A stretch of DNA of 64,000 bases from Escherichia phage vB_EcoM_CUA3: sequence record PP410321. One strand, 5' to 3'. Numbering within the stretch: the stretch's first letter is position 1; each line of letters opens with the position of its first letter. Positions 3,025 through 41,604 of the stretch are shown one piece after another. The notes beneath the pieces are model-generated. The model saw only the letters and a list, made by a program, of their open reading frames with translations. It made no database searches and was not told the DNA's origin. The translations under genes and the position numbers were made by a program.

Positions 3025-4842
3025 TTACGACATCCAGGCCTTACGGAGTTGAGGGTCATTTCCAAGGAGCATTTCGAACTGTTCTTTCCAATCTTCCGGC
3101 AGTTGAACTACATCAAATTTAGGGTCTTGAATCATTCGACGGTATTCAGCCTTCTCAAGAGAACCTAGTCCTTTGATATAACGAATAGAATGTTTTGGTA
3201 GAGAGTCCTTAGCTTTGGTATAACTAGGAACATCATAGAACCATTCTTGTTCTTTACCAACCTGGGCAATAATCACCGGAGTTTTACAGAATCGTACTCG
3301 GCCTTGTTCGAACAATTCAGGCCATTGACTAAAGAAGGCCAGCAATGATGGATAAATCGAACCAGTACCATCCACATCGGCATCGGTCATGATAGCAATA
3401 TTACGATAGTTAGTTTTCTCTGCAGGTTCGCCAATAACCAGTCCAGTGATTGCACAGATATCAAACAATTCTTTGTTCTTCATGATATCTGTTGCTGACA
3501 TTCCCCAGGTATTCATAACCTTACCACGTAGTGGATAACCGCCTTGAAGATCTTTATTACGGACTTCAATGAAAGGACCCATAGCAGAATCGCCTTCGGT
3601 TAAGAACAAAGTCGTATCAGCATCTTTGCCGTATAAGTTAGCTTTAATATGCTTATGGACCTTGGCTTTAGAAGCTTTCTTAGCGGCTTTAGTTTCAGCT
3701 GCCTTTTCAGCTGCTAATTTACGGGCTAAAGCAGCTTCGACGATAGGCATAATAAGCCCTTCGTCTTTAAGAATANNNNNNNNNATTTTCTTTGCATCAA
3801 TTTGAATATGATTACGAATTTCACCGAATGGTGACGTCAAACGCTCTTTAGTCTGGGAATCAAAACGCATATTACTCATATCACGAATGAACATTACCAT
3901 CGTAAGGCATTCTTTAACACGAGCCTTGGTTACTTCAATTCCACGATATTTCTTTTTAATACCAGGCAGAAGGTGCTCACAAATATCATCGAATACACAT
4001 TCAACGTGGTGGCCACCATTCTTGGTGTGGATATTGTTTACATAAGTCAGTTGACGGAAACCATCCGGAGATGTAGTAAATGCCATTGAGACATTATCGG
4101 TTTCTTGAATTACTACATCTTTACCAAATTGATTAGCATACTTTTTAAAGTTACCATCTACTTTTTTACCATTAAAAGTAAATTGGATACTAGGATAAAT
4201 TACAGCTAGGGTTTTAAGACGATCTAAAGTAATATCCAGATAAATTTGGGTCAAACTATTTTCTTCGAAATGGTTAAAGTCTGGAGTGAATATAACCGAA
4301 GTGCCTTTATCTTTGGATTTCTTAGTAGTCCAACCTTTGTTTTCCATTCCGTTAGAACAGTTAACAGTAATCTCATTCTCGCCATCAGAGGTGATGCCTG
4401 TGAACAAAACAGAGAAGATATTAGTTAAACTACTACCGACACCATTCATGCCGCCTGTCTTACGCTCTGCGTCATCTCCAAAGTTACCACCGGCCTTCGG
4501 AATAGTCCATGCAGCTACGGGACCCGGAATTTGTTCACCGTTTTGGTCAGTAACCATTGCTTGTGGAATACCACGACCATTATCAGAAACTGAAACCTGA
4601 TTATTCTTAATTCGGACATCAATTTTGTTTGCGAATTTAAAATTAGTACGAATAGCTTCATCGACAGAGTTATCAATGATTTCGTCAATTAATTTAACTA
4701 GTCCAGGAACATAGTTAACCTGTGTAAAATTACCGAACAGGAATCGACCATGGGCTTCATTAGCACTAGAGCCAATATACATCCCACTACGTTTTTTGAT
4801 ATGTTCAATGTCGGACAGTACTTTAATTTCATTCTTAATCAT
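3025..4842 (-). CDS. 39: DNA topoisomerase II large subunit (GyrB-like ATPase), contiguous 39+60 form
   Basis: 605-aa ORF; GHKL ATPase and TOPRIM-like motifs; ATG with GAGGAAA SD; single ORF covers what T4 splits into genes 39 and 60. Confidence 0.9.
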   Translation of the reverse strand: MIKNEIKVLSDIEHIKKRSGMYIGSSANEAHGRFLFGNFTQVNYVPGLVKLIDEIIDNSVDEAIRTNFKFANKIDVRIKNNQVSVSDNGRGIPQAMVTDQNGEQIPGPVAAWTIPKAGGNFGDDAERKTGGMNGVGSSLTNIFSVLFTGITSDGENEITVNCSNGMENKGWTTKKSKDKGTSVIFTPDFNHFEENSLTQIYLDITLDRLKTLAVIYPSIQFTFNGKKVDGNFKKYANQFGKDVVIQETDNVSMAFTTSPDGFRQLTYVNNIHTKNGGHHVECVFDDICEHLLPGIKKKYRGIEVTKARVKECLTMVMFIRDMSNMRFDSQTKERLTSPFGEIRNHIQIDAKKXXXXILKDEGLIMPIVEAALARKLAAEKAAETKAAKKASKAKVHKHIKANLYGKDADTTLFLTEGDSAMGPFIEVRNKDLQGGYPLRGKVMNTWGMSATDIMKNKELFDICAITGLVIGEPAEKTNYRNIAIMTDADVDGTGSIYPSLLAFFSQWPELFEQGRVRFCKTPVIIAQVGKEQEWFYDVPSYTKAKDSLPKHSIRYIKGLGSLEKAEYRRMIQDPKFDVVQLPEDWKEQFEMLLGNDPQLRKAWMS

Positions 4843-14137: not shown

Positions 14138-14724
14138 ATAATTAANCNNNNNNNNNNNNNNNNNNNNNNNNNNNNNNNNNNNNNNNNNNNNNNNNNNNNN
14201 NNNNNNNNNNNNNNNNNNNNNNNNNNNNNNNNNNNNNNNNNNNNNNNNNNNNNNNNNNNNNNNNNNNNNNNNNNNNNNNNNNNNNNNNNNNNNNNNNNNN
14301 NNNNNNNNNNNNNNNNNNNNNNNNNNNNNNNNNNNNNNNNNNNNNNNNNNNNNNNNNNNNNNNNNNNNNNNNNNNNNNNNNNNNNNNNNNNNNNNNNNNN
14401 NNNNNNNNNNNNNNNNNNNNNNNNNNNNNNNNNNNNNNNNNNNNNNNNNNNNNNNNNNNNNNNNNNNNNNNNNNNNNNNNNNNNNNNNNNNNNNNNNNNN
14501 NNNNNNNNNNNNNNNNNNNNNNNNNNNNNNNNNNNNNNNNNNNNNNNNNNNNNNNNNNNNNNNNNNNNNNNNNNNNNNNNNNNNNNNNNNNNNNNNNNNN
14601 NNNNNNNNNNNNNNNNNNNNNNNNNNNNNNNNNNNNNNNNNNNNNNNNNNNNNNNNNNNNNNNNNNNNNNNNNNNNNNNNNNNNNNNNNNNNNNNNNNNN
14701 NNNNNNNNNNNNNNNNNNNNNNNA

Positions 14725-15246
14725 TTAATAACCTCGGTCCTGACGTGCAAAGTTCTCGGCATTTTTCAGGTAATACAGCTTAAAGATTTCTTCAGCAGTC
14801 AGACCAAGACCCTGGAACATATTCAGAACAAAGTGCAGAATATCAATCATTTCGAATTTAATTTCGAGCTGGTCTTCAGGAGACANNNNNNNNNNNNNNN
14901 NNNNNNNNNNNNNNNNNNNNNNNNNNNNNNNNNNNNNNNNNNNNNNNNNTGCATCTTTCTCACCGTTGCTCATACCACCAAGAGATGTCAGAAGTTCACG
15001 GAATTCGTCATCAATATAATCTTTCTGGTTGCGAAGCCAGTCGACAACTTGACCTGCAGTAGCTAATTCATCCGGATTAGCATTAAACTCTGATTTTTCA
15101 GTAGCCAGACGAACCTGTAATGATTTCTGCATATCAAGCATAACCTGCAGAGGGTCTTTATCTTCGTGAATCAGAGCATTAAAATAAGCTTCTTCAGCTT
15201 TATCAGCACCAGCAATCAGTTGAGAACATTCATTAAAATGAGCCAT
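14725..15246 (-). CDS. 56: dCTP pyrophosphatase (dCTPase, MazG-like all-alpha NTP-PPase)
   Basis: about 173 aa from MAHFNE; EIKFEMIDILHF-type helix; position next to primase as in T4; part of the interior N-masked. Confidence 0.75.
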   Translation of the reverse strand: MAHFNECSQLIAGADKAEEAYFNALIHEDKDPLQVMLDMQKSLQVRLATEKSEFNANPDELATAGQVVDWLRNQKDYIDDEFRELLTSLGGMSNGEKDAXXXXXXXXXXXXXXXXXXXXXXSPEDQLEIKFEMIDILHFVLNMFQGLGLTAEEIFKLYYLKNAENFARQDRGY

Positions 15247-15287
15247 TATNTTTTTCCTTNTCAATTCATTNNTTAGTAAGTTAGATA

Positions 15288-15310
15288 ATTATAAACTGTT
15301 AGATTAAAGC
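15288..15310 (-). promoter_or_regulatory. middle-type (MotA-box-like) promoter for gene 56
   Basis: minus-sense GCTTTA, 11 nt, TATAAT, located about 35 nt upstream of the gene 56 ATG. Confidence 0.45.
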
Positions 15311-15340
15311 GAATAAATATTAATTTAACAGGAGGATAAC

Positions 15341-15541
15341 ATGGGTAGTATTTTTTATCAAATCTGGAAATTGGCAGAAAAGAAAGACAAGAAAATGATG
15401 TTAGGTTTTCTTGCGCTAGACGTATTCCTTTGGAATCTTTTAGTAGTCCCTGTAGCCGCTAGCCAAGGGGTAATTTTACCAGCGGTTACAATGGAACATG
15501 TAATGAGCATTATAGGATTCTTTACCGGAATCCCTGCTTAA
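15341..15541 (+). CDS. hypothetical small hydrophobic protein on the plus strand
   Basis: 66-aa ORF with strong AGGAGG SD 5 nt upstream of ATG; hydrophobic; late-promoter-like AATAAATA about 22 nt upstream; sits in the divergent gap between 56 and 61. Confidence 0.35.
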   Translation: MGSIFYQIWKLAEKKDKKMMLGFLALDVFLWNLLVVPVAASQGVILPAVTMEHVMSIIGFFTGIPA

Positions 15542-16566
15542 ATCTTGGAATATTTTGAAAGTCTCATTTTTGCCATTAAACCTTGGGCTATATTAGCTTT
15601 CATATATGCCAATATATCATTTATATCAGCTTTATCTTTCATAACCATATCATTTATATCTTTAGAAGGCCATGGAGCCTTGTCCCAGAATAGAACCCTT
15701 TCGCCGGCATCAACTAGGCGTTGCATACGCTTAATTGTGTCAGGATGACGGGGTTCATTATCCATTACCCACGCTCTTGTTTCTTTACATGGAACTACTG
15801 ATAAGTCTAATGACCCGCCAGTAATTGCTATGGCATTAGGAACAAATAAAGAATCAATAGGCCCTTCCATAACCCATACCAATTGACGTTCGTCAACCGT
15901 ATCCATTCCATATATTTTTGTAGCTTGGTCATGAGCTTTTATTGTAATATATTTTTGTGGAGCATCTTTACGTAAGGCGCGACCCTGGAAACTTTCTATT
16001 TGTTTATCCTTATTGAAAATAGGAATAACCAAACGTGGTTCAGGCATTTCTTTAGAATAGGTTCCTGGATTCACTGAGTTAACCAATGCCGGCCATTCTT
16101 TAGTAAACCATAGTCGATTCCACTTGTTTTCAGGAATGCAACGCAACGTTACATATTTGATAATAGGATGGTCTTTCGGCATTCTATCTAATCGTTCACA
16201 GAAATTAAGCTTTTCGATGACCGGCATCTTAGCTTTAATTTTTTCAGATATCTCCACCTTAGGTGCAGCTTGTCTCCCGAACGATTGCTCTTTATGTTTC
16301 TCAAGAATATATTCCCGATATAAATCAGGCTCATATTCGTATAGATATTTCTTAATTCCTGCTGAATAGTCGCAGTTAAAACAATGCAACATAATGGAAC
16401 CATCATTGGCCGGATAAGCCCAAAAACGAGCTTTGTTCTCATCTTTTTGTGAGTCACCGCACACACGGCAACGACAGTTTAATTTAAAATCACTACCGGT
16501 TACTTGTCTGAATTTAGGTTGGTAATTCAAGGCACGTACAGCAAATTCTTTATCGACATATGACAT
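15538..16566 (-). CDS. 61: DNA primase
   Basis: 342-aa ORF; N-terminal zinc ribbon CRCRVCGDS...CFNC and TOPRIM-like region; length as T4 gp61. Confidence 0.9.
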   Translation of the reverse strand: MSYVDKEFAVRALNYQPKFRQVTGSDFKLNCRCRVCGDSQKDENKARFWAYPANDGSIMLHCFNCDYSAGIKKYLYEYEPDLYREYILEKHKEQSFGRQAAPKVEISEKIKAKMPVIEKLNFCERLDRMPKDHPIIKYVTLRCIPENKWNRLWFTKEWPALVNSVNPGTYSKEMPEPRLVIPIFNKDKQIESFQGRALRKDAPQKYITIKAHDQATKIYGMDTVDERQLVWVMEGPIDSLFVPNAIAITGGSLDLSVVPCKETRAWVMDNEPRHPDTIKRMQRLVDAGERVLFWDKAPWPSKDINDMVMKDKADINDILAYMKANIAQGLMAKMRLSKYSKI

Positions 16567-16766: not shown

Positions 16767-16782
16767 AGGCTCCTGGCCTTAT

Positions 16783-16974
16783 TTATATTACGAAAATAGC
16801 TTTATCACCATTCACATCAGTGACTTCATAAGTATCTTCGTGGTACAGTGGAATAATCCAAGTCACACCATCACCAGCGATAACATGGATAGCTTCTTGG
16901 TCTTTTGATACGATTTCATATTCTTCGAATAATTCGAATACAGAAATCTTAGAGCCCGTACACATTGCAGTCAT
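16783..16974 (-). CDS. hypothetical protein
   Basis: 63-aa ORF in the 61.x interval. Confidence 0.35.
   Translation of the reverse strand: MTAMCTGSKISVFELFEEYEIVSKDQEAIHVIAGDGVTWIIPLYHEDTYEVTDVNGDKAIFVI
16788..16795 (-). promoter_or_regulatory. late-type promoter motif (TATAAATA)
   Basis: exact T4 late consensus on the minus strand upstream of the 53-aa ORF. Confidence 0.4.
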
Positions 16975-17730: not shown

Positions 17731-17760
17731 ATAGTATCACTACCATAGACCGATGTAAAC
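17731..17760 (-). promoter_or_regulatory. early-type promoter upstream of sp
   Basis: minus-sense GTTTAC, 18 nt, TACTAT, then AGACCTATCAAC; GGTCTAT/ATAGACC inverted repeat. Confidence 0.6.
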
Positions 17761-17761
17761 A

Positions 17762-18001
17762 CTATTTTAAAGAATCTTCTAAATAAATTTTACGGAATTT
17801 ACGTTTCGTCTGACGAATCTGACGTTTAGTAGGCTTCACAGGAAATTCGAAGAACTCTACGTATTCCTGTTCATAATCATTATGACCCACTGAAAGAACC
17901 AGTTCCCAGCTGCTTACGGTGCGTTGGATAAACATATTATGCTTACCAAAAGATTTATTCCAAAAAGAACTAGGAGTTGGCTTCATTAGTACAATATTCA
18001 T
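17762..18001 (-). CDS. hypothetical protein
   Basis: 79-aa ORF, ATG start. Confidence 0.4.
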   Translation of the reverse strand: MNIVLMKPTPSSFWNKSFGKHNMFIQRTVSSWELVLSVGHNDYEQEYVEFFEFPVKPTKRQIRQTKRKFRKIYLEDSLK

Positions 18002-41573: not shown

Positions 41574-41604
41574 ACCCTTACCATTATTAGATAAGGGTAT
41601 TTAT
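41574..41604 (-). promoter_or_regulatory. RBS-sequestering hairpin with late-promoter-like motif upstream of gene 49
   Basis: minus-sense TAATAAATA followed by ACCCTTA-(11 nt)-TAAGGGT then TTATT-ATG; the 3' arm contains the AAGGG SD. Confidence 0.4.

Follow-up and report, generated by a model that had tools for sequence, protein, structure and literature searches.

The interval between primase gene 61 and gene 56 of Escherichia phage vB_EcoM_CUA3 raises the question of whether a 66-codon ORF on the plus strand, opposite to its neighbors, is a gene and, if so, what its product would do. The first-pass annotation of the 64,000-nucleotide stretch of DNA analyzed here (sequence record PP410321; referred to as the window) read this ORF either as the gene of a small late membrane protein or as a false one that overlies the gene 56 promoter region. 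We conclude, with a probability of roughly 85%, that the ORF is a genuine gene of T4-like phages, in the joint sense that it is protein coding, that its product is a membrane protein, and that it has the architecture of a late promoter upstream. Existing entries (dam.1, phrog_2024, and many GenBank records) already list its product as a hypothetical protein.

Layout of the locus and its relation to dam

The coordinates of the window are those of JS10 (Dhakavirus, Tevenvirinae), whose copy of the ORF protein shares 98.5% identity with that of the window. The minus strand carries all 90 CDSs annotated in JS10 1-50000; the ORF is therefore the odd one out in strand, in keeping with its initial description as a lone plus-strand ORF. 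Masking as N affects 6250 window bases (14148-14723 and about 40 other runs, both soc genes included), with single masked bases within the spacer between gene 56 and the ORF at 15250, 15260, and 15271-15272; the absences given below refer to the unmasked sequence. The features discussed below are as follows.

14725-15246, minus strand: gene 56 (dCTPase)
15288-15311, minus strand: candidate MotA-dependent middle promoter of gene 56, by consensus only
15312-15319, plus strand: predicted T4 late-promoter-like element AATAAATA (consensus TATAAATA, A at -13), read directly
15330-15335, plus strand: Shine-Dalgarno sequence AGGAGG, read directly, then 5 nt (ATAAC) and the ATG
15341-15541, plus strand: the ORF, dam.1 ortholog and phrog_2024 member (ATG, 66 codons, TAA), from the ORF list, profile match, and frame conservation
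15395-15463, plus strand: predicted transmembrane (TM) helix, codons 19 to 41, from hydropathy and AlphaFold2
15431-15481, plus strand: motif W-N-x4-P-x-A-x3-G-x2-L-P, codons 31 to 47, from the family alignment
15538-15541: TTAA palindrome common to the convergent stops of the ORF and primase gene 61 (4-nt overlap)
15538-16566, minus strand: primase gene 61
3019, 15313 (plus strand), 16780, 18318 (plus strand), 41598, 52744, and 59993: copies of ATAAATA in the window

The gap between genes 61 and 56 measures 291 bp, of which the spacer between gene 56 and the ORF takes up 94 bp. Direct reading of 15330-15335 confirmed the AGGAGG reported 5 nt before the ATG, and the stop described as abutting the primase stop in fact overlaps it by 4 nt (TTAA). 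The same TTAA(A) stop overlap is present in T4, fPS-90, NBG1, Biddle_MM4, STML-198, Moon, and a metagenomic T4-like contig (L026). An opposite-strand position at the 3' end of gene 61 was found in T4, T4T, fPS-90, VR5, Biddle_MM4, PM2, and Q7622, as well as in VR7, PEi20, KpV477, STML-198, Moon, NBG1, and contig L026; the ORF always converges on the primase gene, and the stops usually overlap.

The locus had also been characterized as the gap in which T4 carries dam, with no Dam-like methyltransferase present. The second part stands, as tblastn with T4 Dam gave a best E value of 0.8 in the unmasked part of the window, and the gap between genes 61 and 56, only 291 bp long, holds no Dam gene. 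The first part is correct as far as the gene order of T4 is concerned (61, dam, 56) but misses that T4 has the ORF too. The T4 homolog is a 66-aa plus-strand ORF at T4 17738-17938, within the 309-bp interval between dam and gene 61; its stop likewise overlaps the primase stop, GATAAATATTAATTTAAAGGAGGATATATATG lies upstream of it, and a GATAAATA element lies upstream of T4 17738. We therefore rejected the notion of the ORF as a stand-in for dam, since T4 carries dam and the homologous ORF side by side.

Annotation of this gene differs among records. The 309-bp interval of T4 has no annotation in NC_000866, no CDS other than dam and gene 61 is listed under the T4 match in AF158101 or NC_000866, and the T4 homolog is without annotation in X01416, as is the ORF in the JS10 and JS98 records (GenBank and RefSeq). 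In the T4T record (HM137666, ADJ39749.1), the homolog is named "dam.1, hypothetical protein," and RB32 ORF030w is cited for the homolog in the VR7 record. The window ORF shares with dam.1 of T4T, RB32 ORF030w, and phrog_2024 the family (HMM E value of 3e-28), the W-N-x4-P...G-x2-L-P motif, the length (61 to 69 aa among aligned lineages), and the place, orientation, overlapping stops, and upstream ATAAATA and Shine-Dalgarno sequence. Differences are that the window (Dhakavirus) and T4 proteins are only about 22% identical outside the motif and that the left neighbor is gene 56 in the window and dam in T4. The dam.1, RB32 ORF030w, and phrog_2024 entries have no assigned function, and a survey of the literature on dam.1, on T4 small ORFs by ribosome profiling, and on T4 transcription-start maps found nothing on the ORF.

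Predicted promoters and transcript ends around the ORF

The late-promoter-like sequence noted upstream of the ORF is AATAAATA at 15312-15319, 21 nt from the ATG, and its core is kept in relatives. Of 14 lineages, 12 have ATAAATA at a distance of 20 to 29 nt from the ATG, with T, A, G, or C as the base in front of it, and the other two (Gelderlandvirus and Moonvirus) have TTAAATA in its place. All 14 lineages have an RBS of the GGAG/GGAGG type 8 to 12 nt before the ATG. The ATAAATA core is depleted in the window, with 7 copies in 64 kb on both strands versus 24.6 +/- 5.0 in dinucleotide shuffles, which suggests selection against stray late promoters within the early region. Only two of the copies are on the plus strand, and one of these sits 21 nt before the ORF ATG. 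Elsewhere in the window, the minus-strand copy at 41598-41604 lies 29 nt upstream of the gene 49 ATG, and a perfect TATAAATA on the minus strand at 16780-16787 lies 13 nt before the gene 61.1 ATG (16766), then AGGCCAGGAGCCT; judged by its sequence, the latter element may be a late promoter for gene 61.1 and the primase gene.

The consensus of T4 late promoters is TATAAATA (Geiduschek and Kassavetis, PMC2988020), and A at -13 is the commonest variant, found in 9 of the 50 T4 late promoters listed there. T4 late transcripts can be of either polarity (PMC2988020). The ORF has such a TATAAATA-type element at about -10, without a -35 element and at the right distance from the gene. A comparable arrangement is that of T4 soc, which also combines a TATAAATA-type late promoter (29 nt before the ATG), a short leader, and a strong RBS inside a block of early and middle genes; soc, however, encodes a capsid protein and lies on the same strand as its neighbors, whereas the window gene is on the opposite strand and is predicted to encode a membrane protein. 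From the conserved element and RBS, the depletion of the core, the published properties of T4 late promoters, and the likeness to soc, we infer on good grounds that transcription of the ORF is late and gp55 dependent. A gp55/gp33/gp45-dependent polymerase would transcribe the gene from AATAAATA, and the transcript would start near 15325, with a leader of about 15 nt.

Read on the minus strand, the same spacer contains CGCTTTA (15311-15305), 11 nt, and TATAAT (15293-15288), followed by the gene 56 ATG at 15246. The consensus of MotA middle promoters is TGCTTtA, about 12 bp, and TAnnnT, and the arrangement in the window is probably a MotA-dependent middle promoter of gene 56. The MotA-type element is conserved in VR5, NBG1, and PM2, and fPS-90 has a perfect TGCTTTA that is annotated as "predicted middle promoter." The MotA box directly adjoins the late-promoter element of the opposite strand, so the spacer would contain two back-to-back promoters, and the ORF would not lie over the gene 56 promoter.

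The interval between gene 56 and the ORF is also an insertion hotspot, holding mobE in VR5 and a homing endonuclease gene in fPS-90. In Biddle_MM4, gene 56 is annotated as two pieces around a 253-aa ORF, and Q7622 also has two adjacent NTP-pyrophosphohydrolase CDSs (loci in these phages: L001 784-1440, L022 480-1130, L002 368-1129, and L004 593-1393).

Downstream of the ORF, no plus-strand terminator was found in the window, and the fold there is no better than that of shuffled sequences (z of -1.07). Tequatroviruses have a minus-strand terminator-like hairpin (ATGGCA, 8 nt, TGCCAT, and a T run) within codons 5 to 12 of the ORF (L005, T4, 3250-3285; L022 1205-1245, minus strand), which presumably ends gene 61 transcripts. 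No equivalent of this minus-strand hairpin was seen in the window.

Conservation of the reading frame and coding status

The protein matches phrog_2024 (unknown function) with an E value of 3.1e-28, residues 1 to 64 aligning to profile positions 1 to 64 of 65. In tblastn searches, the window protein hit 131 phage records at an E value of ≤0.01, from hosts including Escherichia, Klebsiella, Enterobacter, Citrobacter, Salmonella, Pectobacterium, Edwardsiella, and others, and the T4-type protein hit 699 records at an E value of ≤0.1, mainly Tequatrovirus and Mosigvirus. A homolog is encoded in about 830 phage records. At the same spot, a plus-strand hypothetical protein is annotated in VR5, PM2, Q7622, Biddle_MM4, KpV477, Moon, STML-198, NBG1, and T4T.

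Conservation of the frame in relatives had been set as a refutation test for the ORF, and it holds: each of the nine named Tevenvirinae genera sampled keeps the frame, and the protein is under purifying selection. The ORF and its frame are open in 12 of 12 diverged T4-like lineages, and this is the sole such frame of the six, yet synonymous sites are near saturation (dS of 1 to 3). By the Nei-Gojobori method, dN/dS is 0.07 against both VR5 (dS of 0.31) and Klebsiella phage Biddle_MM4 (dS of 1.9) and 0.1 to 0.43 for the remaining pairs within subgroups. Substitutions fall mostly at the third codon position (for example, 11, 3, and 35 at positions 1, 2, and 3, respectively). Together with the conserved late-promoter-like element and RBS, the conserved frame supports the reading of the ORF as the gene of a small, putatively late membrane protein.

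Three other explanations of the locus have to be weighed against this reading. It is very improbable that the interval is a noncoding spacer with the gene 56 promoter and gene 61 3' signals in which the frame is accidental. In favor of this view are the shortness of the ORF, its location in a 291-bp gap of an AT-rich genome, its lack of annotation in JS10, JS98, and the T4 reference, and the Tequatrovirus minus-strand terminator hairpin inside its first codons; but an accidental frame would not be expected to stay open in all 12 lineages despite a dS of 1 to 3, with low dN/dS within subgroups and invariant motif residues. The suggestion that the ORF is false and overlies the gene 56 promoter is rejected on the same grounds and because that promoter probably maps upstream, in the 94-bp spacer, and not inside the ORF. 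A late antisense RNA running into gene 61 might instead shut down primase synthesis, the peptide being incidental. The ORF does converge on gene 61 with overlapping stops, and since no plus-strand terminator was found after it, read-through antisense to gene 61 is likely. An RNA-only role nevertheless leaves the third-position bias, the dN/dS of 0.07, the strong RBS, and the invariant W-N...P unexplained, and we regard it as quite unlikely; antisense RNA could be an additional effect beside the protein. The chance that the real gene is an antisense 50-aa ORF at 15358-15510 on the minus strand, cotranscribed with genes 61 and 56, is practically negligible. Its polarity is that of all neighboring genes, and its frame is fairly open in 8 of 12 lineages (56 to 65 stop-free codons), but it is broken in Q7622, KpV477, STML-198, and Moon, where the longest stop-free runs are 22 to 33 codons; moreover, the substitution pattern fits the plus-strand frame, and all annotated relatives call the plus-strand gene.

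Additional copies of the gene occur in some phages. VR7 (Gaprivervirus) has tandem paralogs between gene 56 and the primase gene (L007 1295-1492 and 1501-1770), the first of T4 type and the second of Dhakavirus type. Close to the 3' end of the second, an insertion of 1 nt, which is either a sequencing error or decay, extends the frame by 24 codons into the primase gene. UPEC01 and DK-13 have two matching places each for the window protein. A search for a paralog of the ORF in the window found none.

The predicted membrane protein and its possible role

The ORF product is predicted from hydropathy, charge, and AlphaFold2 to be a 66-residue inner-membrane protein. Residues 1 to 18 are amphipathic and basic (5 K/R and 2 D/E), and residues 19 to 41 are strongly hydrophobic, with Kyte-Doolittle means of 1.6 to 2.1 in 15-residue windows starting at 19 to 28. 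A conserved loop, G-x-x-L-P-x-V-x-L/M-E, follows at residues 42 to 50, and residues 51 to 66 are moderately hydrophobic with no basic residue; overall, residues 42 to 66 contain no K/R and one D/E, and the C terminus reads ...SIIGFFTGIPA. Across 38 aligned family members, W31, N32, and P37 do not vary, and conservation reaches at least 90% at G43 and P47. AlphaFold2 places helices at residues 2 to 14, 17 to 41, and 51 to 62 at low confidence (pLDDT of 66). As for three TM segments, there is one clear hydrophobic helix (19 to 41), and the helices at 2 to 14 (amphipathic) and 51 to 62 (12 residues) are too short or polar for certain TM status. The charge distribution favors, by the positive-inside rule, an N terminus in the cytoplasm. 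The basic amphipathic N-terminal helix would thus lie in the cytoplasm, with one TM helix at residues of about 19 to 41 and the conserved G-x-x-L-P-x-V-x-L-E loop and short hydrophobic C-terminal helix on the periplasmic face. Neither Pfam nor NCBIfam yielded a match for the window protein (in Pfam, none even at an E value of ≤10), and Foldseek with the AlphaFold2 model against viral predicted structures recovered its own family only (E value of about 0.02) plus noise. A dual-start holin/antiholin motif was considered and rejected; Met19 and Met20 precede the TM helix but are not conserved in PM2 or T4.

An exhaustive profile search of 1.84 billion representative proteins returned only 22 clusters. 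Some of these represent additional T4-like phages in which the synteny is preserved (P0125); other clusters hold proteins of 70 to 99 aa from a siphovirus-like phage type and from enterobacterial chromosomes (Enterobacter, Klebsiella, Serratia, Pectobacterium, Yersinia, and, rarely, E. coli). A prophage relative, annotated as hypothetical, is present in 2 of 5426 complete E. coli genomes. The link between the T4-like family and these longer relatives is solid at the level of sequence comparison: hhalign joins the two alignments with 98.3% probability (E value of 1.2e-14) over the TM helix, loop, and C-terminal helix, and the relatives match phrog_2024 at E values of 1e-7 to 4e-11. In a 96-aa relative, the common core is modeled at a pLDDT of 85 to 94.

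The siphovirus-like relatives have two constant companions, uncharacterized proteins roughly 180 and 105 aa in length, in cyclically permuted order (186-103-96 in copies on enterobacterial chromosomes, L013-L016, and 82-180-109 in metagenomic contigs). In the vicinity of this three-gene module are genes for a J-like tail tip protein and endonuclease VII and, in some cases, for a T4-type lysozyme (L013-L017, L025, and L027). The 180-aa companion weakly matches the minor tail protein family phrog_1924, the 105-aa companion matches no family, and in one contig the companions adjoin tail chaperone and tape-measure genes. No copy of the 180-aa partner is detectable in T4-like phages, apart from a single match in the record of Escherichia phage DCP80 (L028, PQ671644; 141 kb, filed as Gaprivervirus). 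In this record, the early 56-61 region adjoins a tail sheath gene, and a gene otherwise seen only in siphovirus-like relatives is also present; the record looks chimeric or misassembled, and we discarded the linkage.

The longer relatives also supply the lead toward lysis. In 34 of 47 of them, PF11351 (GTA_holin_3TM) is the most frequent weak Pfam match, in the same register, at 12 to 19 bits in the tables shown (best E value of 8.5e-4), all scores lying below the Pfam gathering threshold of 24.8 bits. A few longer relatives weakly match phrog_3427 "holin," and one weakly matches the "GTA-like holin" of Pseudanabaena phage Pan1. PF11351 matches none of the 38 T4-like members, which give only scattered weak matches to unrelated membrane families; in UniRef, one of the T4-like members is named "Holin." A T4-type lysozyme gene lies within 1 to 2 kb in two contexts of the distant relatives; in a third, there is no lysozyme gene within the 10-kb locus, and tail chaperone and tape-measure genes adjoin. 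ICP1 TeaA was assigned to PF11351 by remote homology and has holin activity in experiments (PMC7182436), and ICP1 ORF137 (taken as TeaA/Gp137) gave no direct Pfam match. As a PF11351 comparison set, we used Oceanospirillum phage ORF26, assigned to PF11351 by a paper, and five Vibrio phage homologs, whose gene adjoins an M15 peptidase gene in three records; hhalign of this set against both alignments gave probabilities of 0.2 to 0.3%, and the set itself has no Pfam match at an E value of ≤0.01.

Likeness to GTA-type 3TM holins (PF11351; phrog_3427) consists in being a small phage membrane protein, in the PF11351 matches of the longer relatives over the TM helix, loop, and C-terminal helix, and in a similar three-helix layout of the models. 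The T4-like protein differs from them in that it lacks a long hydrophilic linker and a charged C terminus, its ORF is not beside an endolysin gene, and T4-like members have no PF11351 match. The general holin traits of small size, at least one TM domain, and late expression are found in its 66 aa, in the TM segment at 19 to 41, and in a lateness judged from the promoter only, whereas a holin-type hydrophilic charged C-terminal tail is absent from the window protein. In T4-like phages, no endolysin gene lies beside the ORF, the neighbors being primase and gene 56, dam, or a homing endonuclease gene. T4 lysis genes are themselves scattered around the genome and not gathered in a cassette. Of the T4 lysis and lysis-inhibition proteins (holin T, antiholins RI and RIII, and spanins PseT.3/PseT.2), T, RI, and the spanins are membrane associated as the ORF product is predicted to be, but no sequence similarity to the ORF was found, no genetic link between the ORF and lysis is reported, and the T holin has a single TM segment and a large periplasmic domain. 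T4 already has this holin, and t mutants do not lyse; dam.1 therefore cannot be a sufficient holin.

The likeliest single role, proposed tentatively and with the odds clearly against it, is that of an accessory factor, holin-family-like, that would act in the membrane late in infection on lysis or its timing; it is a lead only, because the holin resemblance of the longer relatives is weak, transitive, and always below threshold. In its narrower form, somewhat more doubtful still, dam.1 would be a miniaturized member of the GTA-type holin superfamily acting beside T as a late modulator of lysis timing or inhibition, for example, as a second holin-like subunit or as a membrane partner of T or RI. 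We put at about even odds that the ORF encodes a real membrane protein with a role outside lysis, whether in assembly, in protection (against superinfection, lysis from without, or host defenses), or as a virion-associated membrane-insertion peptide. The subthreshold holin resemblance agrees with such a role, as does the company of the roughly 180-aa and 105-aa proteins, the former weakly minor-tail-like, in which the relatives travel. The family is, moreover, confined to phages and chromosomes of Enterobacterales (22 clusters), which, with the strictly conserved short loop, suggests a specific partner rather than a generic pore. Against a role outside lysis, there is no positive evidence for any of the roles listed, the 180-aa partner has no detectable copy in T4-like phages, and, for exclusion in particular, imm and sp, the exclusion genes known in T4, belong to the early rather than the late genes.

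Since many GenBank records and PHROGs already contain it as a conserved hypothetical gene, the finding is ordinary in itself. The records of the reference organism T4 (NC_000866/AF158101), of JS10, and of JS98 omit a gene that strong purifying selection preserves in all nine named Tevenvirinae genera sampled, and proteomic or transcriptomic analyses based on these records will miss it. The value of the result is that the annotation of JS10, JS98, and the T4 reference can be corrected and that the gene is a well-defined knockout candidate. If the weak link to GTA-type holins is true, the gene would bear on the timing of lysis in T-even phages; as a modulator of lysis beside T, it would be an unrecognized component of the classic T4 lysis system.
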